64,000 bases of DNA from Chloroflexota bacterium. Its GTDB lineage: Bacteria; Chloroflexota; Anaerolineae; Anaerolineales; Anaerolineaceae. Below are positions 40,645-51,891 of this stretch, piece after piece. Under the pieces are notes generated by a model. That model was not told the origin of the DNA. It was given only the letters and a program-made list of their open reading frames with translations, and made no database searches. Made by a program: the position numbers and the translations under genes. Each line of letters begins with the position of its first letter. The first letter of the stretch is position 1. The stretch covers positions 13,858-77,857 of the forward strand of contig JAAZNW010000076.1 of NCBI GenBank assembly GCA_012798065.1, read 5' to 3'.

Positions 40645-40664
40645 CCTGTCTGTTCGCTTGAGCG

Positions 40665-40697
40665 CAGGGGCAATGGATCAGTTGCCCCTGTTTTTTA
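40665..40697 (+). terminator. Rho-independent terminator after cydB (overlaps the 3' end of the convergent racemase gene)
   Basis: CAGGGGCAA-(8 nt)-TTGCCCCTG followed by TTTTTTATT. Confidence 0.7.
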
Positions 40698-41382
40698 TTG
40701 CCAGGTTCACCGCCGCCTCAGCGTGGATCTTCGTGGTAGCGAAGATTGGCAATACGCTGTCTTGCGGGCGCACCAGGTTTTCAATTTCAGTGCAGCCCAA
40801 AATCACCCCCTGCGCCCCCGCGTCGGCTAAATTGCTGATCACCTTGCTGAATTTCTCCCTGGACGACGCTTTCACCACTCCCATGCAGAGTTCTTGATAA
40901 ATCACCTCGTGGATGATCTGCCGTTCAGCTTCGCCTGGAACGAGCACGTTCAGCCCATGTTTTTTCGCCAGGCGGTCTCTGTAAAAATCCTGTTCCATAG
41001 TAAAACGCGTGCCCAATAACCCCACCTGCGTGATTCCAGCGGCTTTCACAGCATCAGCCGTGGCGTCAGCGATGTGCAGCAGCGGGATGCCCAGTTCGGC
41101 TTCCAGGCTTGGCGCCAGTTTGTGCATGGTGTTGGTGCATAACAGGATGAAGTCCGCGCCTGCCGCTTGCAGAGCGCGTCCAGCAGCAAGTAAACACCGC
41201 GCCGCTTCCTGCCAGTTGCCCTGGCGCTGCCATTCTTCGATCTCAGCAAAATCAACAGAGTACAGCACGCATCTGGCGGAATGGAAACCGCCAAGCCGTT
41301 TTTTCGTTTCCAGGTTAAGGATGCGGTAATACTCGAGGGTTGATTCCCAGCTCATACCGCCAATCAGACCGATGGTTTGCAT
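40678..41382 (-). CDS. Asp/Glu/hydantoin-racemase-family protein (aspartate racemase-like)
   Basis: 234 aa. IGLIGGMSWEST start. Two catalytic-type Cys blocks (LLCTNTMH and ILGCTEI). Confidence 0.85.
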   Translation of the reverse strand: MQTIGLIGGMSWESTLEYYRILNLETKKRLGGFHSARCVLYSVDFAEIEEWQRQGNWQEAARCLLAAGRALQAAGADFILLCTNTMHKLAPSLEAELGIPLLHIADATADAVKAAGITQVGLLGTRFTMEQDFYRDRLAKKHGLNVLVPGEAERQIIHEVIYQELCMGVVKASSREKFSKVISNLADAGAQGVILGCTEIENLVRPQDSVLPIFATTKIHAEAAVNLAIKNRGN

Positions 41383-41452
41383 AGGCTGTCTCCTGACGAC
41401 CTCTGTTACCTCATTTTACATCAGCATTTGTGGTTGTATTTTTCGTAAATTT

Positions 41453-41485
41453 TTGTACAATACAATTACCTGGTAAAACCACCAG
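41453..41485. promoter_or_regulatory. Cluster of inverted repeats (candidate GntR/FadR-type operators) just upstream of the regulator gene
   Basis: TTGTA-CAA-TACAA (41453-41465), TTACC-T-GGTAA (41466-41476) and CTGGT-AAAACC-ACCAG (41470-41485). All lie within 40 nt of the ATG at 41492. A TACAAT hexamer sits at 41461-41466. Confidence 0.3.
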
Positions 41486-41491
41486 CCAAGC

Positions 41492-42217
41492 ATGCGTACA
41501 ACCTTTGAACCGTTGCAAGTCACCAGCCTGAAAGAGGCCTGTATCACCCGCCTGGAGGAGCTGATCCTTTCCGGTGAGCTGAAAGCCGGCGAGCGTCTGC
41601 CTGCGGAACGGGATTTTGCCGCGCGCCTGGGCGTAAGCCGCCCGGTGCTGCATGAGGCGTTAGTCGACCTGGCAGCGAAAGGCCTGCTCACCATTCACCC
41701 GCGCCGCGGTGTGCTGGTCAACGATTTTCGCGTCTCGGGCTCTTGCGCCATCCTCTCATCATTACTTACGTATCACAACGGCAGCCTTGACGTTGATTTC
41801 ACTGAAAGTCTGCTGGCGATGCGTGTGTTGGTGGAAACTGAAACCGCCCGCCTGGCAGCGTTGTATGTTACGCCACAGCAAGAGCGCTCCCTTGAGGAGA
41901 TCATCGCCAATGAAGCCGCCTGCGACCGCGCTGACCCGCTGACCCGCACAAGCTTGGATTTTGATTTTCACCTGGCGGTCGCCATCGCGTCAGGCAACCT
42001 GGTTTACCCGTTGATCCTTAACTCGTTTCAAAAGGTATACACCCTGTTCACTGGCGTTTTCTTTTCCCATTCCGCTGGCAGCGCGGTGATGGATGAAGTG
42101 CTGGTCTTCCATCGCCGCCTGGTGAGCGCCATCCGCGAACATCAGCCTGAGGTTGCTGCGGCGGTGATGCGCGAGTTGCTGCTGCACGGCGAGCAGATTT
42201 TAAAGGAAGTTTTATAA
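41492..42217 (+). CDS. GntR-family transcriptional regulator, FadR subfamily (FCD ligand domain)
   Basis: 241 aa. wHTH LPAERDFAARLGVSRPVLHEAL followed by an all-helical FCD-like C-terminal domain. Confidence 0.88.
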   Translation: MRTTFEPLQVTSLKEACITRLEELILSGELKAGERLPAERDFAARLGVSRPVLHEALVDLAAKGLLTIHPRRGVLVNDFRVSGSCAILSSLLTYHNGSLDVDFTESLLAMRVLVETETARLAALYVTPQQERSLEEIIANEAACDRADPLTRTSLDFDFHLAVAIASGNLVYPLILNSFQKVYTLFTGVFFSHSAGSAVMDEVLVFHRRLVSAIREHQPEVAAAVMRELLLHGEQILKEVL

Positions 42218-42239
42218 GCAGTTAAACAAGGAGGAATAG

Positions 42240-44756
42240 ATGAGCACCCAAACCACAGATAAACCCAGGTTTGAAATTAAGGCTCCCAGGAATCTTTCTG
42301 AGCGCATCAGCTGGCTGCGTGATTACTACTTTGAAGGGGTTAACCGAAAATGGAATAACGAGTATATCTCGTACACTACTGGCACAGATTGGGACTTCCA
42401 ATATAACGAGCTTTCTTTTTACATCGTCCCCGAAACGTATTTCTACATCCCCACCTTCCGCTCCTCCTTTAAACAACTGGCCAGGCCGGTAACCCTGCAC
42501 GACGATTTTTGGAAATGGAGCCTGCCGGAACGCCGCGCATGGTTTTTGAAAGAAGTGCTACTGAAATACCATCCCAAGGAGATTTTGCCCGGAGACCTGC
42601 TGGCAGGGGCGCGCTTTAATGTGATGGCCTCTCACTGCCTTAACCAGAAGGAAGCGAAAGCCTACGATAAGATGATCTATGGGAAAAAGGGTGCGCGCGC
42701 CGCCATGTTGTGGTTCCACAACCATGGCTACGGCAACACCGGCGCTACCAGTGGTCACCTGGTGCCAGGTTACGCGCGGGTCATCGAGCATGGGTGGAAA
42801 GCCATTCACGCGGATATCCAGGCGCATTATGACGCGCTCCCCCCGGCGCAGCAAAAAGATAAAAAAGGCGCTCAACTGCGTGCCATGCTGACCGCTTCCA
42901 CCCTGGCGCGCGACCTTGCTGCTGAGTATCAGGCCCTGTTGGTCAGTCTGGCACACGCTGAACAAGACCCCATGCGCAAAACGGAACTGGAGCAAATGGC
43001 GCACAATCTTTCCCGTGTACCCTGGGAACCCGCTGAAACCTTCTGGCAGGCGGTGCAATCCCTGTGGCTGACACACATGCTGGTTATAGCCGACGAATGC
43101 TACCCGGGCCCAGGTGTTTCCTTTGGGCGTATTGACCAGTATCTCAACCCGTTCTGGGAGCGTTCCCTGGCTGAAGGGATGCAGCGCGAATTCGGCAAGG
43201 AAATCCTCAAATGCTTTTGGGTGCATTGCAATACCGCCTACGACGCTATGATCCAAACCGGCGGTAACCAGGGCATCACTGCCGGGTACGGGCAGCTGCT
43301 CACCCTGAGCGGGGCGGGTAAGAGCGGCGCGGACATGACCAATGACCTCACCTTCGCCATGCTCGAAGTCATTGACGAGATGACGCCCATCCTGGAGCCG
43401 AAACCCAACGTGCGCCTGCATCGCGGCACGCCCGATGACCTGCTGACCAAGGTGGTAGATATGATCTCCTCCAGCCAGGGGGCACCCTTCTTGTTGAACT
43501 TCGACGAGCGCTCGATGGCCGGCATGATGTTGGAAGCACGCAAAGCCGGGGTGGAGCACCTCATCCATGCGGAAAACGTGCATGAGTACGCCCCAGTTGG
43601 CTGCCTGGAGAACACCATGGTCGGGAATGACCGCTCCGGTACCGTTGACGATAACCTGAACCTGCTCAAAGCGGTGGAACTCACGCTCACCGGGGGTTAC
43701 GACCTGAACCCGGTGGTCGACGCGCTTAGCGGAAAAGCAGAAAAGCCGCGTCGTGATGGCGAAAACAGCGGCGACCCGGCCAGCTTCACCACCTGGGAGC
43801 AGTTCTGGGAAGCCTACGCCCTTCAAACGCGCTATATCATCCGTAAAAGTGTTGAAACATACGAGCGCTCTGAAGAGATTCGCGCCAAGTATTTCCAGAC
43901 CCCTTACGTTTCTTGCCTGGTAAAGGGCTGCGCGGAAAGCGGGAAAGATATCAACGAAGGCGGCGCGGAACTTGGCTTTGTCACTATTGAAGGAGTCACC
44001 TTCGCCACCACCGTGGATTCTTTGCTGGCGGTGAAATACCTGGTTTTTGACCAAGCCATTTGCACGATGAACCAGTTGGTGCAGGCGCTGCGCGACAACT
44101 GGGTGGGGCACGAGAAGTTGCAGGCCATCGCGCTGTACAAAGCCCCCAAGTACGGTCGTGACGAGGATGACGCAGACGCCATGGCCAGGCAGGTGATGGC
44201 ATTGTGGACAGAAGAGACCTGGAAGCATAAAACGGCTTCCACCGGCAGGCAGTTCCGCCCTGGCATGCTGAGCTGGAACTACTGGATTGCTTACTCTGAT
44301 ATCCTCGCTGCCAGCCCAGATGGTCGCGCCAAAGGCAAGTTTCTTTCGAACGCGCTGTGCCCCTCCAACGGCGCGGATATTAACGGCCCTACCGCCAACA
44401 CCAACTCGGTGGGCAAGGCTATGGGCGGTAAATCGCCTGACGGCAATGGCGACTGGCAGGAATACTTGAGCATGCTGCCCAATGGCGGCAGCCATACCAT
44501 CACCTTTAACCCATCTATTTTGCGCGATCCAGAACACAAGGAAAAGTTCAAAGCATACCTGCGCGGTTATATTGAAAATGGCGGCAGCGCGCTGCAGATC
44601 AACATGCTCAACGCAGACATGCTGCGCGACGCGCAGCTACACCCCGAAGATTACCGCCACCTGTTGGTGCGCGTGACCGGTTACAACGCTTACTTCACCG
44701 CAATTGGCAAAGAACTGCAGGATGAGATCATCGCCCGAGAAAGCCACCAGATGTGA
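42240..44756 (+). CDS. Glycyl radical enzyme (PFL2 / 1,2-eliminase-like), substrate unknown
   Basis: 838 aa. C-terminal glycyl loop LLVRVTGYNAYF (Gly814, GGT at 44679). Thiyl loop APVGCLENTMVG (Cys455, Glu457; TGC at 43602). GGAGGA RBS. Confidence 0.9.
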   Translation: MSTQTTDKPRFEIKAPRNLSERISWLRDYYFEGVNRKWNNEYISYTTGTDWDFQYNELSFYIVPETYFYIPTFRSSFKQLARPVTLHDDFWKWSLPERRAWFLKEVLLKYHPKEILPGDLLAGARFNVMASHCLNQKEAKAYDKMIYGKKGARAAMLWFHNHGYGNTGATSGHLVPGYARVIEHGWKAIHADIQAHYDALPPAQQKDKKGAQLRAMLTASTLARDLAAEYQALLVSLAHAEQDPMRKTELEQMAHNLSRVPWEPAETFWQAVQSLWLTHMLVIADECYPGPGVSFGRIDQYLNPFWERSLAEGMQREFGKEILKCFWVHCNTAYDAMIQTGGNQGITAGYGQLLTLSGAGKSGADMTNDLTFAMLEVIDEMTPILEPKPNVRLHRGTPDDLLTKVVDMISSSQGAPFLLNFDERSMAGMMLEARKAGVEHLIHAENVHEYAPVGCLENTMVGNDRSGTVDDNLNLLKAVELTLTGGYDLNPVVDALSGKAEKPRRDGENSGDPASFTTWEQFWEAYALQTRYIIRKSVETYERSEEIRAKYFQTPYVSCLVKGCAESGKDINEGGAELGFVTIEGVTFATTVDSLLAVKYLVFDQAICTMNQLVQALRDNWVGHEKLQAIALYKAPKYGRDEDDADAMARQVMALWTEETWKHKTASTGRQFRPGMLSWNYWIAYSDILAASPDGRAKGKFLSNALCPSNGADINGPTANTNSVGKAMGGKSPDGNGDWQEYLSMLPNGGSHTITFNPSILRDPEHKEKFKAYLRGYIENGGSALQINMLNADMLRDAQLHPEDYRHLLVRVTGYNAYFTAIGKELQDEIIARESHQM

Positions 44757-45727
44757 TGTCATCCGAAAACGTTTCTACCCGCGGCACTATCCTGCACCTG
44801 CAACGCCTCTCCACGGAGGATGGCCCGGGGATTCGCACCACGGTTTTCTTCAAGGGCTGCACGCTGCGCTGCGAATGGTGCCACAACCCTGAAAGCCTTT
44901 CCCGGCACAGGCAGGTACAGTGGCTCGCCAACCGCTGCATCGGCTGCGCGAGCTGTGTGGCTGCCTGCGAGGTGCATAGTCTCACGCTCACCGTTGAGGG
45001 CATTGTGCGCGACCGCGGGTTGTGCGTGACGTGCGGGCGCTGTGTTGAAGCCTGTCCATCAGGCGCGATGGAAATGCTGGGAAAAGAAGTGAGCGCAGCG
45101 GAACTGACCGCCGAACTGCTGAAGGACCGCGCTTACTTCGAAAAATCCGGCGGCGGTGTTACCCTCTCAGGAGGGGAACCAACCCTGCAGCCGGCGTTTT
45201 GCGCTGCGCTGATGGACGCCTTGCACGCTGAGGGCGTGCATGTGGCGTTGGATACCTGCGGGTTAAGCGCGCCTGGTGTGTTCAGTGAGCTGGCGGCAAA
45301 GGCTGACCTCATTTTGTTTGACCTGAAACTGATGAACCCCGATGAACACAAACGTTGGACAGGCGCGGACAACAGCCGTATCCTGCGCAACCTGGAAATT
45401 GCGCGCGATTTCGTGTCTCGTTCAGGCGGGGCAAAACGCCTGTGGATTCGCACGCCGCTCATCCCCGGCGCAACAACAGCCCCTGACAACCTGGCAGGTA
45501 TCAGTGCGTACCTCGGCGCATCGTTCGATGGCAGTGTAGAGCGCTGGGAGCTATGCGCCTTCAACAACCTGTGCCGCGACAAATACGAACGCCTGGGCAT
45601 GCGCTGGACCTTTGCCGAAACAGAACTGCTGACCGCGCAACAACTGACACAGATGGGTGAATGGGCCAGGTCAGGCGGCTTCGACCCTTCGCGCACCTTT
45701 GTCACTGGGGCAGCCAAAGCCAGTTGA
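44753..45727 (+). CDS. Glycyl-radical enzyme activating protein (radical SAM)
   Basis: 324 aa. CTLRCEWC (CX3CX2C) plus two ferredoxin-type clusters (CIGCASCVAAC, CVTCGRCVEACP). ATGA overlap with the GRE gene. Confidence 0.9.
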   Translation: MMSSENVSTRGTILHLQRLSTEDGPGIRTTVFFKGCTLRCEWCHNPESLSRHRQVQWLANRCIGCASCVAACEVHSLTLTVEGIVRDRGLCVTCGRCVEACPSGAMEMLGKEVSAAELTAELLKDRAYFEKSGGGVTLSGGEPTLQPAFCAALMDALHAEGVHVALDTCGLSAPGVFSELAAKADLILFDLKLMNPDEHKRWTGADNSRILRNLEIARDFVSRSGGAKRLWIRTPLIPGATTAPDNLAGISAYLGASFDGSVERWELCAFNNLCRDKYERLGMRWTFAETELLTAQQLTQMGEWARSGGFDPSRTFVTGAAKAS

Positions 45728-45767
45728 TTATTTCGAGAAATAATGCTTGAATGGAGACCCTAAAACC

Positions 45768-46625
45768 ATGAACTCCTCTCTTTACCCCCGCAACAGTTTT
45801 TCAGAACAAGAGATCAAAGACCTGTCCGCGGCAATGAAGGTCGGTATTCTGGGCACGGTGAACCCGCAGGGGCTGCCGCATCTCACCCTCATCACCACGC
45901 TCATGGCGAGCAGCCCACAGGTGGTGGTATGGGGTCAGTTCATGGAAGGCAGCAGCAAGAAACATGTGCTCACCAACCCGAAGACCGGATTCATGGTGAT
46001 GGGGCTGGATAAGAATTTCTGGCGCGGTTTCGCTGATTATTCTCACTCAGAGACTTCAGGAAAGGATTACGCGTACTACAACAACACCCCGCTTTTCCGT
46101 TACAACGCGTATTTTGGTGTGCACCGCGTGCATTATATGGACCTTATCGCTCACACGGGGAAGCACCCGCTGCCGATGCAGCGCATTATCCCCGCCGCGG
46201 TGATGACCATGGTGGCTAAAACGCTCAGCGCGAAACCACAAAAGACCCCTGTGCTGAATCCCTGGACACAGGCATTTTTCAACAAGATTGATAACCTTAA
46301 GTTCCTCGGTTACGTCAACGCGGAGGGCTACCCGGTTATCATCCCGCTTATCCAGGCGCAGGCGCTCGACCGCGAGCATCTCATCTATTCATTGGGCGCG
46401 TTTGGTGATGAGCTGGCGCAAATTCCACCGTACACTCCAGTGGCAGTGTTCGGCATGGCGCTCAGCATGGAAGATGTGCTGGTGCGCGGCACTTACCAGG
46501 GAATCAAGCGCGTTGCCGGCATAAGATGCGGTCTCGTCCAGTTAGACTGGGTCTACAATTCCATGCCGCCCACCCCCCGGCAAATCTACCCTGAAGTGGT
46601 CATCGAAGCAGTGAGCGAATTTTAA
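45768..46625 (+). CDS. Tandem split-barrel (PNPOx/FMN-binding-like) protein
   Basis: 285 aa from ATG 45768. Both halves carry the G(I/Y)L(G/V)TVN..G.PH / YVNAEGYPVIIPL pattern of pyridoxamine-5'-phosphate-oxidase-related split barrels. Assignment from pattern memory only. Confidence 0.55.
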   Translation: MNSSLYPRNSFSEQEIKDLSAAMKVGILGTVNPQGLPHLTLITTLMASSPQVVVWGQFMEGSSKKHVLTNPKTGFMVMGLDKNFWRGFADYSHSETSGKDYAYYNNTPLFRYNAYFGVHRVHYMDLIAHTGKHPLPMQRIIPAAVMTMVAKTLSAKPQKTPVLNPWTQAFFNKIDNLKFLGYVNAEGYPVIIPLIQAQALDREHLIYSLGAFGDELAQIPPYTPVAVFGMALSMEDVLVRGTYQGIKRVAGIRCGLVQLDWVYNSMPPTPRQIYPEVVIEAVSEF

Positions 46626-47518: not shown

Positions 47519-47929
47519 TTACTCGCCCTTCTGCATCGAGGCTTGCGTGAAATCGCTGACTTTCATCCCTTGCGCCCTGGCCGCTTCAATAATTCGCACA
47601 AAGAGCGGATGGGTTTCCCCGGGGCGGTGATAAAAATAAACCTCGTCAAAAAAAGACAGGCGTGTGATGAAACTTTGAAGCAGCCTTTCGTAATCTTCTT
47701 CGGTAACCGTGTCAGGAGGTTGGTTGTACCATTTGATGTGGTCATCGCGGAAAACCACTCCGTAGCGGTCGGAGAGAATTGCCCAGTAGTGAGAATGCTC
47801 ATTACAATACTTGATGAACTGTTGAATCCCCTCTGAGGTGTATAGCCGGTCAGGCGTGACCTTTTCTCCGGTCAATGCAAATTCAGGGTCTTTTTCTTTG
47901 GAACAATGAGTGAGGTAGATTTTTTTCAC
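47519..47929 (-). CDS. Hypothetical protein, DUF6884-like
   Basis: 136 aa. Pattern ..HCSKEK...LY.S...Q.F......W.ILSDRYGVV... resembles DUF6884. Low GC (about 42% in a sampled line). 4-nt overlap with the upstream MFS gene. Confidence 0.5.
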   Translation of the reverse strand: MKKIYLTHCSKEKDPEFALTGEKVTPDRLYTSEGIQQFIKYCNEHSHYWAILSDRYGVVFRDDHIKWYNQPPDTVTEEDYERLLQSFITRLSFFDEVYFYHRPGETHPLFVRIIEAARAQGMKVSDFTQASMQKGE

Positions 47930-49122
47930 TGGTTGCCTTGTCCCTTTCTTTTCACGCCGAACAACACTGGGAAGAAGAGGATGACCAGCAGCATCAACGC
48001 GCCGAAAACTAGAAAAGTCAGCGGGTAACCAGCCGCGTTAGCCAGCCCTCCGCCCAGCCCCAGGCCGATACCCTGACCCACATTGGTGACCGCCATCAGG
48101 ATGGAGAACATCGATGCGGCAATGGCAGGCTGGGTATACTTCATCGCCAGCGCAAAGTAAATCGCCTGAGAGAGCCCGTAGGAGACGCCAAAGAAGACGA
48201 TCACCGCCCACATCATCGGTCGGTTGGCCACCATCGCCAGCAATATCATAGCCGGCACCACGAGCAGGATGGACAGCCACAGCGCTTTTTGGTTTCCCAG
48301 CTTATCCATCACCCTCCCGCCAGCCAGCGCGCCAACCACACAGCCTATCCCCCACACAGTAGTGAGCAAACCGGCTGTGCTGAGGTCAATGCCCAGTTTG
48401 GCGTCAAGAGAGGGGTTAACCAATTGATTCGCCCCCACAATCACCAGGAAAATGACCAGCCCCACCGCGGCTACTGCCAGCACCTGCACATTTTTAAACG
48501 CGCGAAAAGCTGACCATTGAAAGCGCATTTCAGCCGTTTTCTGAATTTCCTTGATAAAGAACAAGAACGGGATTGGCACCAAAGTGAGGATGGCCAGAAA
48601 GTAAAACACGCCTTGCCATGAGAGGTGCTGCGCGATAAGCCCGGCAACAGAAGCAGCCACAATCACGCCCACTGAACGCCCGCCGACCATAAAACCCTGC
48701 AGGGTGCCTTTTTCTGTTTCTGGTGTGATATCCAGCGCCAGCCCATCGGTGCAGGTATCATAAAACGCCATACCCAGTTGGAGCAAGAAAGCCAGCCCCA
48801 CATAAAGCCAGTAACTTCTACCGGGGTTGATGTTGGCCACAACGATGAGGCAGGCAAACTGCACCAGCAGACCGATGAAGATGTACGGTTTGCGGTGTCC
48901 CAACCCTAACAGGTTGTAACGGTCACTCAGAATGCCAAAAAGGATCTTGATGACAAAAGGGATGAGGGCAATGGTGGAAAAGATGCCCACAGCCGCCATA
49001 TCTAATCCATTATCCAGCATGTACAGCGCGTTGAGAGAAGCGAAATATCCCAATATCGTTCCCTGGGTAAAATAGAGCAGCGCGAACATCATCAGGCGAG
49101 TGAACTTGCTTTGTGGGCTCAT
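47926..49122 (-). CDS. MFS transporter
   Basis: About 398 aa from ATG 49122 (MSPQSKFTRLMMF...), 12 predicted helices. Confidence 0.75.
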   Translation of the reverse strand: MSPQSKFTRLMMFALLYFTQGTILGYFASLNALYMLDNGLDMAAVGIFSTIALIPFVIKILFGILSDRYNLLGLGHRKPYIFIGLLVQFACLIVVANINPGRSYWLYVGLAFLLQLGMAFYDTCTDGLALDITPETEKGTLQGFMVGGRSVGVIVAASVAGLIAQHLSWQGVFYFLAILTLVPIPFLFFIKEIQKTAEMRFQWSAFRAFKNVQVLAVAAVGLVIFLVIVGANQLVNPSLDAKLGIDLSTAGLLTTVWGIGCVVGALAGGRVMDKLGNQKALWLSILLVVPAMILLAMVANRPMMWAVIVFFGVSYGLSQAIYFALAMKYTQPAIAASMFSILMAVTNVGQGIGLGLGGGLANAAGYPLTFLVFGALMLLVILFFPVLFGVKRKGQGNQ

Positions 49123-49200
49123 AGGGTTTCCTTTGTAAATTTTTATGTCAAAATTATACAAATAATCAAACAGAAAGAAAACGATCAAACCGGAGGGAAA

Positions 49201-50085
49201 ATGACCGGAGATTTTAGCAGCAAGAATGTATTGGTCACCGGAGCCAGTTCAGGGATTGGCTACCAGGCGGCGCTCGATCTGGCGGGCAAAGGGGCTTATA
49301 TAATTGGCACCGGTCGGGACGTGACCCGTTGCGAAGCGGCGCGCACTCGTATATTACAAGTCCATCCAGAAGCCCAAATCGAGTACCTGGTCGCCGATCT
49401 CGCTTCTCAAACCCAAATTCATGATCTGGCGCGTCAGGCGCAGCTTCTCCTGATAGAACATGGGAACAGGCTGGATGTGCTGGTCAACAATGCCGGTCTC
49501 TATTCCAGCAAGCGCGTCCTTACGGAAGATGGCATCGAACTGACATTCGCGGTGAACCATCTGGCGCCTTTTCTGCTCACTCATTTGCTGCTGCCGCAAT
49601 TGTTAAACACGCCGCAGGGTCGCGTTTTGGGGGTCAGTTCTCAGTCTCATTACCACGCATTTCTCTCTCCCCTGAAGGCTTACCGTCCCTGGCTGTACCT
49701 CAGCCTGCCGGTGTACGCCACATCCAACCTGTGCCGGGTGCTCTTCAGCGCGGAATTCAACCGCCGTACACCAACACCTCACCTGCACGCCTGGTCGGTT
49801 GACCCGGGATTGGTCAACACGGAAATCGGTCAAAAAGATAAGGGTTTTCTCTCCAACCTGGTTTGGCGTTTTCGAAAAACGCACGGTACCAGCGCTGAAA
49901 TTCCCTCCCAAACCATTCTGCACCTGGCCTTTTCTGCCTTTCACCATATCGCCGCTGACCTGTACTGGAAAGACAGCCGCCCAAAAGAACCCTCAAGGCT
50001 TTCTCGCGACGCCGAGCTGGCAAAACGTTTGTGGGAACAATCCTGCCGCTTATGCGGGATTGATGACTACTTCAACCCAGGCTGA
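49201..50085 (+). CDS. Short-chain dehydrogenase/reductase family protein with non-canonical YxxxN
   Basis: VLVTGASSGIGY (TGxxxGxG), NNAG, and GVSS Ser are present. The active-site block reads VYATSNLCRVLF, where related SDRs have YxxSKLA. Confidence 0.8.
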   Translation: MTGDFSSKNVLVTGASSGIGYQAALDLAGKGAYIIGTGRDVTRCEAARTRILQVHPEAQIEYLVADLASQTQIHDLARQAQLLLIEHGNRLDVLVNNAGLYSSKRVLTEDGIELTFAVNHLAPFLLTHLLLPQLLNTPQGRVLGVSSQSHYHAFLSPLKAYRPWLYLSLPVYATSNLCRVLFSAEFNRRTPTPHLHAWSVDPGLVNTEIGQKDKGFLSNLVWRFRKTHGTSAEIPSQTILHLAFSAFHHIAADLYWKDSRPKEPSRLSRDAELAKRLWEQSCRLCGIDDYFNPG

Positions 50086-50851
50086 AACAACGCATCGAGA
50101 TCGAGCCCATGATGACCTTTTCATTGAAAAAACTGACCGGCTCGTCCGCGTACCCCGCACCGAGTACGTAAAGCATCGGCAGGTAATGCTCGGCTGAATT
50201 CACCGCCAGTTCAGCGGGTTTCCCGTGTTCCTCATAATGAACCACCTGTTCGTGTTCGCCTTTTTCGATCCAGTTTTTGAGGTCGGCGTCATAGGAAACG
50301 GCCCAGTCATAACCAGCGTCTGCTTCCCATGTGACCATGCGCAGGTTATGCACCATATTTCCGCTGCCAAGGATCAGTATGCCGTCATCGCACAAGGGGC
50401 GTAATTCTCTGCCGAGCAAATAATGAGATTGGACGGAGAGTTGACGGTTAAGGCTCAGCTGTACCACCGGGATCTCCGCCTTTGGGTACATGCGGCAGAG
50501 CACCGACCAACTGCCATGATCCAATCCCCACTCCTGGTCTTCAACGACAGTGGTTGATTTGATTTTTTGCTTTACCAACTCGACCAGTTCGTCTGATCCC
50601 GGCGCGGGATACTGCATCTCGTTCAATTCGCGCGGGAATCCATAGAAATCATGTATGGTGCGGGGGTTTGCCATAGCGGTCACACGGGTGTCCCAGGTTT
50701 CCCAGTGGGCAGAAATGCAAAGCACCGCTCGCGGTCTGGGCATTACCCGTCCCAATTCCTCCCAGGTAAGGCTGAACTCGTTTTGTTCAATGGCGTTCAT
50801 TGGGCTGCCATGACCCACAAATAAAACGGGTAATCGAGTGACAGGTATCAT
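50072..50851 (-). CDS. Class III extradiol dioxygenase (4,5-DOPA dioxygenase/YgiD-like)
   Basis: 259 aa. LFVGHGSPMNAIE start motif and HWETWDT block. Confidence 0.85.
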   Translation of the reverse strand: MIPVTRLPVLFVGHGSPMNAIEQNEFSLTWEELGRVMPRPRAVLCISAHWETWDTRVTAMANPRTIHDFYGFPRELNEMQYPAPGSDELVELVKQKIKSTTVVEDQEWGLDHGSWSVLCRMYPKAEIPVVQLSLNRQLSVQSHYLLGRELRPLCDDGILILGSGNMVHNLRMVTWEADAGYDWAVSYDADLKNWIEKGEHEQVVHYEEHGKPAELAVNSAEHYLPMLYVLGAGYADEPVSFFNEKVIMGSISMRCFSLG

Positions 50852-51891
50852 TTCACCTCCTTGTTTGCCTTTTCAGCGGCGCGCGCTTTATGTTTCACTT
50901 TGATCACGACTATTTTTGTAGGGTGATTGAACGGCGCTGAATCAACCGGCGGCTGGTTTACAACCGTTTCGGCATAACCTGTTACATCCTCCCCTACCGG
51001 GATGATATGCTCAATGGTCAGCAGGCCATTTTCGGTCAGGGCTTCCAGTTCGCCGATGAATTCCCGCCCGCTTAAAAACAGGGCATTATTGACCACCACC
51101 AGGTAGCCGCCATCGGTTACCAAAGGGCGCGCTTTATTGATAAGGCGCGTGGTTTCTTTCACCTGATCTACTCGACCGCGCGGCGTGAGGGAAAAGAAAG
51201 GCGGGTCGATGATGACAATGTCATATGTTTCGCGTTTGCGGCGCATCTGACCTGCCGCCACAAAGAAATCAACCGCGCTGGTCTTCATCTTCGTCTCATC
51301 CAACGCGTTCAGCCTGAGGGACGCGCGTGCCACCTCCAGGAAACGCGCGCTGCGGTCGATCTGGGTAACGGCAGATGCCCCACCGGCGAGCGCAGCCACC
51401 CCCAAGCTGCCAGTATAGGCGAACGTATTGAGCACAGATTGATTGCTCGCGTTTTCCTTGAGCCAGGCTCTCAATCCGCGCGTGTCCAGGTAGAACCCGG
51501 CATCCTGGTTCAGGCGCAACGCAAGCGCGTATTGCACACCGTTTTCCCACACAACGGTATCCGGTTGAGCCCCGTATAGCACCACCCCCTTCTTCGCGTC
51601 AGGATGCGTGGAAGACCGCTGCTTGAGCAACACGCACCCAATCCAATCCAGTTGGGCAAGGAGATGCTGCTGCACCATCTGGGCCAGCGCGAGAGAATCA
51701 GCGGCATCCAGTTTATGGGTAAAGACCACCAGCGTGCGCGCATACAGGTCAACCACCAGCGGAGGGAATCCCTCGTAAAAACCGTTGAATAAGCGAATGG
51801 CTGAACGCGGCGGCTGCTCCAGTAGCGCCTGCCGGTGATACAGCGCGCGGGTGAGCAACCCCGTCAGTTCACTTACTTTATTTCGATCCAT
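50848..51891 (-). CDS. Class I SAM-dependent RNA methyltransferase (RlmI/RlmK-like)
   Basis: 347 aa. VLNTFAYTGSLGVAA SAM motif and IIDPPFFS motif IV. 4-nt overlap with the downstream gene. Confidence 0.75.
   Translation of the reverse strand: MDRNKVSELTGLLTRALYHRQALLEQPPRSAIRLFNGFYEGFPPLVVDLYARTLVVFTHKLDAADSLALAQMVQQHLLAQLDWIGCVLLKQRSSTHPDAKKGVVLYGAQPDTVVWENGVQYALALRLNQDAGFYLDTRGLRAWLKENASNQSVLNTFAYTGSLGVAALAGGASAVTQIDRSARFLEVARASLRLNALDETKMKTSAVDFFVAAGQMRRKRETYDIVIIDPPFFSLTPRGRVDQVKETTRLINKARPLVTDGGYLVVVNNALFLSGREFIGELEALTENGLLTIEHIIPVGEDVTGYAETVVNQPPVDSAPFNHPTKIVVIKVKHKARAAEKANKEVK

Follow-up and report, generated by a model that had tools for sequence, protein, structure and literature searches.

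A predicted eliminase- or isomerase-type glycyl radical enzyme with an obligate split-barrel partner in Anaerolineaceae and other anaerobic lineages

Glycyl radical enzymes (GREs) perform key transformations in anaerobic metabolism. A stretch of 64,000 nt from a bacterium of the Anaerolineaceae (Chloroflexota; assembly GCA_012798065.1, contig JAAZNW010000076.1, positions 13,858–77,857 of the forward strand), here termed the window, encodes one such oxygen-sensitive enzyme together with a radical S-adenosylmethionine (SAM) activase, a tandem split β-barrel protein (SB) and a GntR-type regulator. The conserved unit consists of an optional GntR gene with its operator, followed by the genes of the GRE, the activase and SB, and this module is self-contained and horizontally widespread. 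Judged from its sequence, the GRE is not orthologous to any characterised GRE and is predicted to be of the eliminase or isomerase type; its obligate partner belongs to a new class, and both a regulator and its operator are defined. The explanation which best fits the module as a whole, and to which we assign a probability of roughly 0.55, is a GRE cleaving C–O bonds, with SB functionally tied to this enzyme and a glycerol-type C3 compound as the substrate lead. In comparison to the first-pass annotation of this DNA, which had described an orphan GRE operon with a possible carboxylate or amino-acid-like substrate, the multi-phylum family, the GntR operator, the role of SB as the most faithful partner and the recurrent link to glycerol instead of amino acids are new.

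Gene neighbourhoods were compared in the best 80 loci out of at least 579 matches from a scan of one genome per species, with GRE identities of 67–90%, and neighbours were counted by tblastn in those loci offering enough flanking sequence. The SB gene follows the GRE gene in 65/65 loci, and an activase gene is located within 2.5 kb of the GRE gene in 69/72, with a fragment in locus L001 and none nearby in L012 and L037; a GntR gene lies immediately upstream of the GRE gene in half of the loci (35/70). Among these neighbourhoods, neither clustering of the neighbouring open reading frames (ORFs), nor an analysis of same-strand genes with short gaps, nor an unbiased Pfam tally revealed another consistently linked gene. 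Of the neighbours originally grouped with the GRE, the activase and SB are conserved with its orthologs, and so is the GntR gene in half of the loci; the racemase gene is not, being present in 2/80 loci only, namely in the two closest relatives (L001 and L002). A HAD gene and cydAB are likewise limited to close relatives, and the neighbourhood statistics ruled out all three candidates as module members, their presence reflecting lineage-specific synteny. By their labels, the 80 loci originate from Anaerolineae and other Chloroflexota, Spirochaetota/Leptospirales, Desulfobacterota (Syntrophaceae, Desulfobacteraceae and a metagenome-assembled genome (MAG) of Desulfosudis oleivorans) and a Firestonebacteria MAG.

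The GRE gene (42240..44756, plus strand) encodes 838 aa matching PF02901 (395 bits) and PF01228 (74.5 bits), both above cutoff. As described before, it carries the glycyl loop RVTGYNAYF with Gly814 (residues 811–819) and the thiyl loop VGCLEN with Cys455 and Glu457 (residues 453–458); these three residues as well as His173 are invariant in a family alignment of 15 sequences, and His173 is also kept in the distant homologues P0246 and P0248. None of the NCBIfam equivalog cutoffs is approached, the scores being 360.9 vs. 1100 for HypD (NF043068), 356 vs. 1000 for HpsG, 346 vs. 1000 for HpfG, 299 vs. 1050 for CutC (TIGR04394) and 82 vs. 994 for pyruvate formate-lyase (PFL; TIGR01255), and the subfamily model TIGR01774 for PFL2 and glycerol dehydratase (GD) gives 405 vs. 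a cutoff of 678. Against solved structures, the GRE scores 280 bits with HypD, 275 with IseG, 259 with PFL2, 253 with CutC, 251 with GD, 247 with HpsG, 244 with IslA, 235 with YbiW, 233 with propanediol dehydratase (PD), 232 with PflD and 202 with HplG, compared to 159 with MASS, 147 with BSS, 114 with HPAD and 48 with PFL. By these scores it appears roughly equidistant from all eliminases and isomerases, and much farther from MASS, BSS, HPAD and PFL.

The best solved structure, HypD (PDB 6VXC; E 2.4e-82), aligns only over GRE residues 172–834. Residues were mapped via HMMER alignments, and as a check of the register every named HypD residue fell on its expected letter. His173, Cys455 and Glu457 correspond to HypD His160, Cys434 and Glu436, Cys455 also to IseG Cys466, and His173 to the position of GD His164, where the GD alignment begins with the pair 172/163. 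The essential Asp278 and Asp339 of HypD and its carboxylate ligands Ser334, Tyr450 and Thr645 (PMC7077986) read P291 and Q352, and T347, N472 and W679, respectively. The C–S lyases IslA, IseG and HpsG anchor the sulfonate by an Arg/Gln/Arg triad (PMC13450708); the positions of IseG Arg187, Gln191 and Arg676 read A169, H173 and G675, the first two assuming an ungapped extension of the alignment. The Cys loop contains a single Cys and no PFL-type Cys-Cys pair, and the position which is Phe in GD (Phe333), PD and CutC is Thr347. Because of this mapping and the model scores, the GRE is neither HypD nor CutC, PFL, a sulfolyase or an X-succinate synthase, and owing to Thr347 and the TIGR01774 score below cutoff it is not a GD orthologue. 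The N-terminal ~170 residues are matched neither by the Pfam model nor by other GREs; an extra N-terminal domain was nevertheless ruled out, as this region is as long as in HypD and GD (residue 172 aligns with HypD index 179 and GD 163) and hence divergent.

The view of the GRE as an orphan stands. When 1.84 billion representatives were searched exhaustively, GREs outside its own clade reached no more than about 36% identity, their alignments starting only near residue 165, and an identity above 55–60% to a characterised GRE was not seen. A review of June 2026 lists no such enzyme among the characterised GREs (PMC13450708), and the clade is not mentioned in the literature searched, in which a paper on limonene and a review on alkanes deal with other GREs. 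In agreement with the first-pass annotation, microcompartment shell genes are absent among the neighbours, and no small Cys-rich ORFs of the BSS/HPAD subunit type are conserved in the operon.

The Glu two residues after the thiyl Cys had been taken as a mark of 1,2-eliminases, which proved too narrow, since eliminases and isomerases among the GREs both keep CXE on the Cys loop (PMC13450708). In GD, Glu435 acts as the base towards the C1-OH and His164 as the acid that donates a proton to the leaving C2-OH (PMC13450708), and the catalytic set Cys433/Glu435/His164 is matched by C455, E457 and H173 of the GRE. The retained Cys/Glu/His set most likely indicates a radical C–O cleavage next to a carbinol, by an eliminase or an isomerase. 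By homology, the activase would install the radical on Gly814, generating a thiyl radical on Cys455, which, as suggested by the conserved Cys-x-Glu and His, would abstract a hydrogen from the carbinol carbon. Glu457 would deprotonate the carbinol hydroxyl, and His173, the counterpart of GD His164 and HypD His160, would protonate the vicinal oxygen leaving group, so that the net reaction would be a radical C–O cleavage to an aldehyde or ketone, either eliminase- or isomerase-like.

The activase gene (44753..45727, plus strand) encodes 324 aa from GTG 44753 or 323 aa from ATG 44756. Its product reaches 300 bits with TIGR02494 (cutoff 174), and the CX3CX2C motif (C36x3C40x2C43) and the two ferredoxin-type CxxCxxCxxxC motifs (residues 62–72 and 91–101) were found as previously read. 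The GRE/activase junction has the sequence CAGATGTGATG, in which the TGA stop codon of the GRE overlaps either a GTG (GTGA) or an ATG (TGATG) start codon; the predicted translational coupling of both genes hence stands, the literal ATGA overlap described earlier does not.

The regulator gene (41492..42217, plus strand) encodes 241 aa with the domains PF00392, PF07729 (FCD) and PF07840 (FadR_C) above cutoff, and 22 nt separate its end from the ATG of the GRE gene, in front of which lies AAGGAGG; both the earlier FadR/FCD-type assignment and the spacing are thereby confirmed. It meets none of the NCBIfam equivalog models; the best partial matches are NanR, GlcC, LldR, FadR and PdhR, all far below cutoff. 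In 34/37 GntR-bearing loci across phyla, a palindrome TGGTnnnACCA, which we take to be typical of the FadR/FCD GntR subfamily, precedes the GntR start by no more than 160 nt, mostly by 19–43 nt, at a background expectation of 0.016 per 166 nt. It was found upstream of the GRE gene in 0/42 GntR-less loci, and a search for sigma-54 promoter motifs upstream of the GntR-less operons yielded none. In the window, this candidate operator (TGGTAAAACCA, 41471..41481, unstranded) is located 10 nt before the GntR start codon, between the GntR ATG and a sigma-70-like promoter candidate (TTTACA-16-TATTTT, 41415..41442, plus strand; from a consensus scan only, 9/12 matches). The GntR protein is probably an autoregulating repressor of the whole operon, and the putative promoter upstream of the operator fits a roadblock type of repression. 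A second match to the palindrome (TGGTTGTACCA, 47721–47731) lies inside a DUF6884 gene and probably occurs by chance.

Hints on the substrate came from a minority of loci. A GlpK gene is located directly upstream of the module on the same strand with a 41-nt gap in L076 (its partial protein still scoring above the GlpK subfamily cutoff), and a gene for a GlpD-type glycerol-3-phosphate (G3P) dehydrogenase directly upstream in L056. Four loci from Dehalococcoidia-labelled MAGs (L027, L035, L042 and L050) feature GlpD, GlpK, a hydrolase of the lysophospholipase/monoacylglycerol-lipase type and another alpha/beta hydrolase within 6 kb upstream, and a weak GDSL-like gene downstream of the module. 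Furthermore, the intact homologue P0248, which is 41% identical and shares the pocket positions H173, P291, Q352, L353, C455–N458, D470, L677, W679 and N680, is encoded in an operon of the order PNPOx-like protein, GRE, GpsA C-domain, activase, DUF4125, GlpK (727 bits, cutoff 590), G3P dehydrogenase/oxidase-like protein, NAD/FAD oxidoreductase and DUF1667. We roughly estimate that a glp locus would be met in less than 1% of random 16-kb windows, and the glycerol genes at 6/80 loci, and in addition at L088, are therefore enriched, while still being a minority. Now and then the operon also takes in genes for aldehyde handling: in L023, SB is followed by an aldehyde:ferredoxin oxidoreductase and an Fe-dependent alcohol dehydrogenase (Fe-ADH) of the lactaldehyde-reductase/AdhE-like kind, and in L049 a Zn-dependent alcohol dehydrogenase (Zn-ADH) stands between GRE and activase. 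Other metabolic neighbours are PlsC-type acyltransferases flanking the module in L059 and L062 and present in the L054 locus, and a CrtI-like FAD oxidoreductase recurring in L006, L009, L012, L013, L023, L058 and L085. Glycerol catabolism is the only independently recurring metabolic association. Within the favoured explanation, glycerol or a glycerol-derived C3 compound, e.g., G3P or a glyceryl ether or ester, converted to a carbonyl product, is proposed on this weak genomic association as a tentative substrate, at odds somewhat short of even.

For SB, the ORF as called comprises 292 aa from TTG 45747; because its homologues uniformly have about 285 aa, the true start is most likely ATG 45768, giving a protein of 285 aa (45768..46625, plus strand). 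An AF2 model (pLDDT 87.4, pTM 0.85) shows a tandem split barrel, each half of which was matched by Foldseek with a probability of 1.0 and target-normalised TM-scores of 0.6–0.7 to HupZ, 2HTD, 3IN6 and 1WLK. The matches comprise FMN-, F420- or heme-binding split-barrel proteins, including HupZ, putative PNPOx proteins, the Desulfovibrio vulgaris FMN-binding protein and F420 reductases. In the N-terminal half, G56-x-F58-x-x-G61-x-S63-K64 is invariant even in distant members and followed by N-P; the C-terminal half does not contain this motif, which is similar to the one binding the cofactor phosphate in PNPOx-like proteins, and no Cys is conserved across the homologues. Based on fold and motif, SB probably binds a flavin via its N-terminal half.

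Several lines of evidence connect SB to the GRE itself. In a mirror-tree analysis of 64 loci, SB and GRE distances correlate with r = 0.82 (partial correlation given the activase 0.68), as compared to r = 0.66 for SB and activase (partial correlation given the GRE 0.25), with a bootstrap difference of –0.43 (95% CI –0.55 to –0.33). SB is kept beside GREs without a nearby activase in L012 and L037, and even beside a Cys-less GRE homologue without activase in L083, and a single-domain relative of SB accompanies the distant clade in L088. Counted over the loci, SB accompanies the GRE more consistently than does the activase (65/65 vs. 69/72). We infer that SB is an obligate partner functionally tied to the GRE, acting as a subunit or as a coupled redox or processing partner, and favour such a coupling over a role as flavodoxin-like donor of the activase. 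The June 2026 review lists no GRE partner of the split-barrel type (PMC13450708), and SB would represent a new kind of GRE accessory protein.

Several points weigh against this picture. Glycerol genes lie near the module in only 6/80 loci and L088, a 1,3-propanediol dehydrogenase is not regularly linked to the module in these loci, and both Thr347 at the Phe position of GD, PD and CutC and the TIGR01774 score (405 vs. 678) set the GRE apart from GD orthologues. A FadR/FCD regulator would furthermore be unusual as a glycerol sensor, and the substrate lead is guilt by association. The AlphaFold model of the GRE, built from the 15-sequence alignment, has a mean pLDDT of 57.8, with values below 50 in the Cys and Gly loops and the barrel strands, and is too poor for a view of the pocket. 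As to SB, flavin binding is deduced only from the fold and the S-K motif of the phosphate-binding type, and the window protein scores 21.9 bits with PF01243 at a gathering score of 28.1, many homologues carrying a precomputed match to this family. GRE eliminases need no cofactor after activation, which leaves an obligate flavoprotein unexplained. Finally, two ORFs of 624 and 617 aa fuse the activase to SB (L073:3187–5061, P0391, and L085:9001–10854, P0412). As Rosetta-stone evidence these were downgraded to weak: they are only 2 of 120 top matches, and the GRE adjoining the L085 fusion has three frameshifts, so that this assembly is suspect.

The alternative faring best, although we regard it as rather unlikely, is that the GRE acts on another hydroxylated small molecule, e.g., a hydroxy acid or carboxylate sensed by the FCD regulator, with SB being a flavin-dependent enzyme that reduces the product (e.g., an imine, enone or aldehyde) or processes it in another way. 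FCD regulators typically sense carboxylates, which would suit the partial matches to NanR, GlcC, LldR, FadR and PdhR; 74/80 loci are without nearby glycerol genes, and T347, Q352, N472 and N680 are polar pocket positions. Split-barrel F420/FMN enzymes include reductases, the co-evolution of SB and GRE also fits a shared substrate specificity, and the CrtI-like FAD oxidoreductases recur near the module. However, no carboxylate transporter or downstream enzyme recurs among the loci, and the only repeated metabolic association is that with glycerol genes, seen in independent arrangements and in a distant clade.

A bolder version of the favoured explanation, to which we give a slim chance, would have SB as a true flavin-containing subunit of the GRE, taking part in catalysis or radical control, and the GRE system in an unknown step of anaerobic glycerolipid turnover (glyceryl ether or glycerol phosphate cleavage) in sediment and digester bacteria. 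If true, this would be the first flavoprotein-dependent GRE, in which e.g., a redox-neutral elimination might be turned into a reductive C–O cleavage or the glycyl radical be quenched reversibly.

That SB instead serves as a dedicated flavodoxin-like electron donor of the activase, and not as a partner of the GRE, is improbable. The two activase-SB fusions would agree with such a role, as would the D. vulgaris FMN-binding electron carrier among the Foldseek matches and an FNR-like, 2Fe-2S-containing NAD(P)H reductase encoded in the L085 operon, which recalls the chain of NADPH:flavodoxin reductase, flavodoxin and the PFL activase (PFL-AE) (PMC13450708). The fusions are, however, rare and in L085 possibly an assembly artefact, SB occurs beside GREs without a nearby activase (L012, L037) and beside the Cys-less pseudo-GRE of L083, and the mirror-tree result favours coupling of SB to the GRE.

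The original proposal of a substrate that is a D/L amino acid or resembles one, taken here with the divergent racemase feeding the GRE, is now very improbable, being largely refuted by neighbourhood conservation. The racemase is adjacent, divergent and of the genuine Asp/Glu type, hydroxyproline-type GREs exist (PMC13450708), and an ornithine aminotransferase gene precedes the GRE gene in L013 and L017. Yet the racemase is confined to the two closest relatives among 80 loci and thus a chance neighbour, the HypD Asp278/Asp339 pair and carboxylate ligands are replaced by P291, Q352, T347, N472 and W679, and no P5C reductase or amino-acid transporter is conserved in the loci. Membership in a characterised family, as conveyed by the JGI/NCBI names of the homologues ("formate C-acetyltransferase", "pyruvate-formate lyase", "trans-4-hydroxy-L-proline dehydratase"), be it PFL, HypD, CutC, an isethionate/DHPS sulfolyase or an alkyl/benzylsuccinate-synthase-like enzyme, has a next to negligible probability and is already refuted at the level of sequence by equivalog scores far below cutoff, the lacking Cys-Cys pair, HypD Asp residues and sulfonate triad, BSS/MASS scores of only 147–159 bits and the absence of encoded small Fe-S subunits.

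A comparison with known systems underlines both the kinship and the distance of the GRE module. With GD (DhaB1/DhaB2 of Clostridium butyricum) and PD it has in common the GRE with an activase bearing two ferredoxin-type motifs, the CXE, the His at the GD His164 position and the occasional genomic link to glycerol catabolism and alcohol/aldehyde oxidoreductases. In contrast to these systems, the module has neither a linked 1,3-propanediol dehydrogenase nor a microcompartment and features an obligate SB and a FadR-type regulator; besides Thr347 and the low TIGR01774 score, the 251 bits to GD are no better than for other eliminases, and the N-terminal ~170 residues are not alignable with those of other GREs. 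HypD, the best-scoring structure, has the same His/Cys/Glu set and type of activase, but its essential Asp residues and carboxylate ligands are replaced in the GRE, with 361 vs. 1100 for the equivalog. The isomerases YbiW/PflD, acting on 1,5-anhydrohexitol-6-phosphate, and HplG cleave a C–O or C–N bond beside a carbinol radical (PMC13450708); they likewise keep CXE and are not microcompartment-bound, but score lower (202–235 bits), and no aldolase or sugar-phosphate genes are linked to the module described here.

Accessory GRE subunits are known only for HPAD (gamma), BSS (beta/gamma) and MASS (beta/gamma/delta), and are HiPIP-like Fe-S or rubredoxin-like proteins (PMC13450708). As in these enzymes, a small accessory protein is strictly co-encoded with the catalytic subunit and carries, or in the present case probably carries, a redox cofactor; unlike there, where the accessory subunits are limited to decarboxylases and X-succinate synthases, the partner is a tandem PNPOx-like barrel of 285 aa with no conserved Cys, encoded with an eliminase-type GRE. 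A likeness to the supply of PFL-AE by flavodoxin and NADPH:flavodoxin reductase lies in a flavin protein that could feed an electron to the activase, with the fusions and the FNR-like gene of L085 pointing this way, whereas SB differs by its split-barrel fold, its dedicated co-encoding and its stronger co-evolution with the GRE than with the activase.

The family itself is large and uniform. At least 120 clusters at 90% identity are 73–99% identical to the window GRE, which is 99% identical to cluster P0001; all have 835–844 aa and carry only generic or automatic names. Beyond them, the N-terminal ~170 residues are shared by a few 50%-identity clusters (P0241, P0242, P0245–P0248, P0254, P0259 and P0261), with alignments from residue 5–17. 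P0242 (L083:260–3669) is without the thiyl Cys (SGFHET) and without activase; its gene overlaps one for a split-barrel protein of 293 aa, and genes for ECH, SnoaL and an ABC transporter of the LIV type come next. P0245 (L081:6753–10156), P0247, P0254 and P0261 are without the glycyl-radical C-terminus, yet share the family N-terminal region, and P0245 adjoins an activase-like radical SAM gene and an Fe-ADH; together with P0242 they may be non-radical "pseudo-GREs". P0246 (L086:1635–6993) is intact and 43% identical; behind it lie genes for a TPP-dependent enzyme and an alpha/beta hydrolase, but no split-barrel gene or adjacent activase, and its contig carries a TFIIB-type gene and may be of archaeal origin. 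In L026 and L028, a second GRE paralogue of roughly 990 aa with an activase of its own directly adjoins the module on its upstream side; in L026 this pair, with ORFs of 989 and 310 aa, is co-directional with the module, in L028 it is divergent. In the divergent locus L085 (10854–14387), the GntR/FCD gene comes after the module and is itself followed by genes for a CrtI-like FAD oxidoreductase and a 2Fe-2S-containing reductase of the PaaE/FNR-like kind, all overlapping and co-directional.

All five ORFs of the region 40678–46625 were found at the coordinates given by the first-pass annotation. Outside the conserved module, the adjacent, divergent racemase gene (40678..41382, minus strand) has a PF01177 match and 231 bits with TIGR00035 (cutoff 93), and both Cys82 and Cys197 are present, as expected for the two-Cys racemase described there. 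cydAB (cytochrome bd) lies upstream of the locus and NuoL/M/N-like genes are located at the window end, so that the earlier statement on cytochrome bd and complex I genes next to a GRE is correct, but this coexistence is in itself unremarkable. A strong terminator-like hairpin (40664–40691; 11 pairs, then TTTTTTATT) just past cydB, in overlap with the end of the convergent racemase gene, sets the cyd operon apart from the GRE locus. Rfam and tRNA scans of the window gave nothing relevant near the locus. Downstream of, and unrelated to, the module are genes for a LigB-type extradiol dioxygenase-like protein, a SAM methyltransferase, DUF6884 and an MFS/BT1 transporter (50072–51891 and 47519–49188). 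In the closest relatives, the module is followed at a distance of a few genes by one of the heliorhodopsin family (PF18761; L055:13081–14028, with members of this ORF cluster also in L001, L002 and L003), the Pfam assignment of this cluster across the four loci being a putative one; at the matching place, the window has the DUF6884 gene and the BT1-type MFS transporter.

Unannotated GRE clades as such are expected, and according to the June 2026 review whole clades are still untested (PMC13450708). The present one is large, with at least 579 matches in species-representative genomes, and unusually conserved across phyla (67–90%). Its carriers are abundant environmental anaerobes (Anaerolineae, Syntrophales, Desulfobacterales and Spirochaetota), and the MAG labels suggest genera or species with cultured members, such as Bellilinea, Levilinea, Leptolinea, Pelolinea and Desulfosudis oleivorans. 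In this context, the conserved operator offers a direct handle for finding the inducer and hence the substrate. If the glycerol link is true, the module would constitute a second, widespread radical route for the processing of glycerol or glycerolipids in anoxic carbon cycling.

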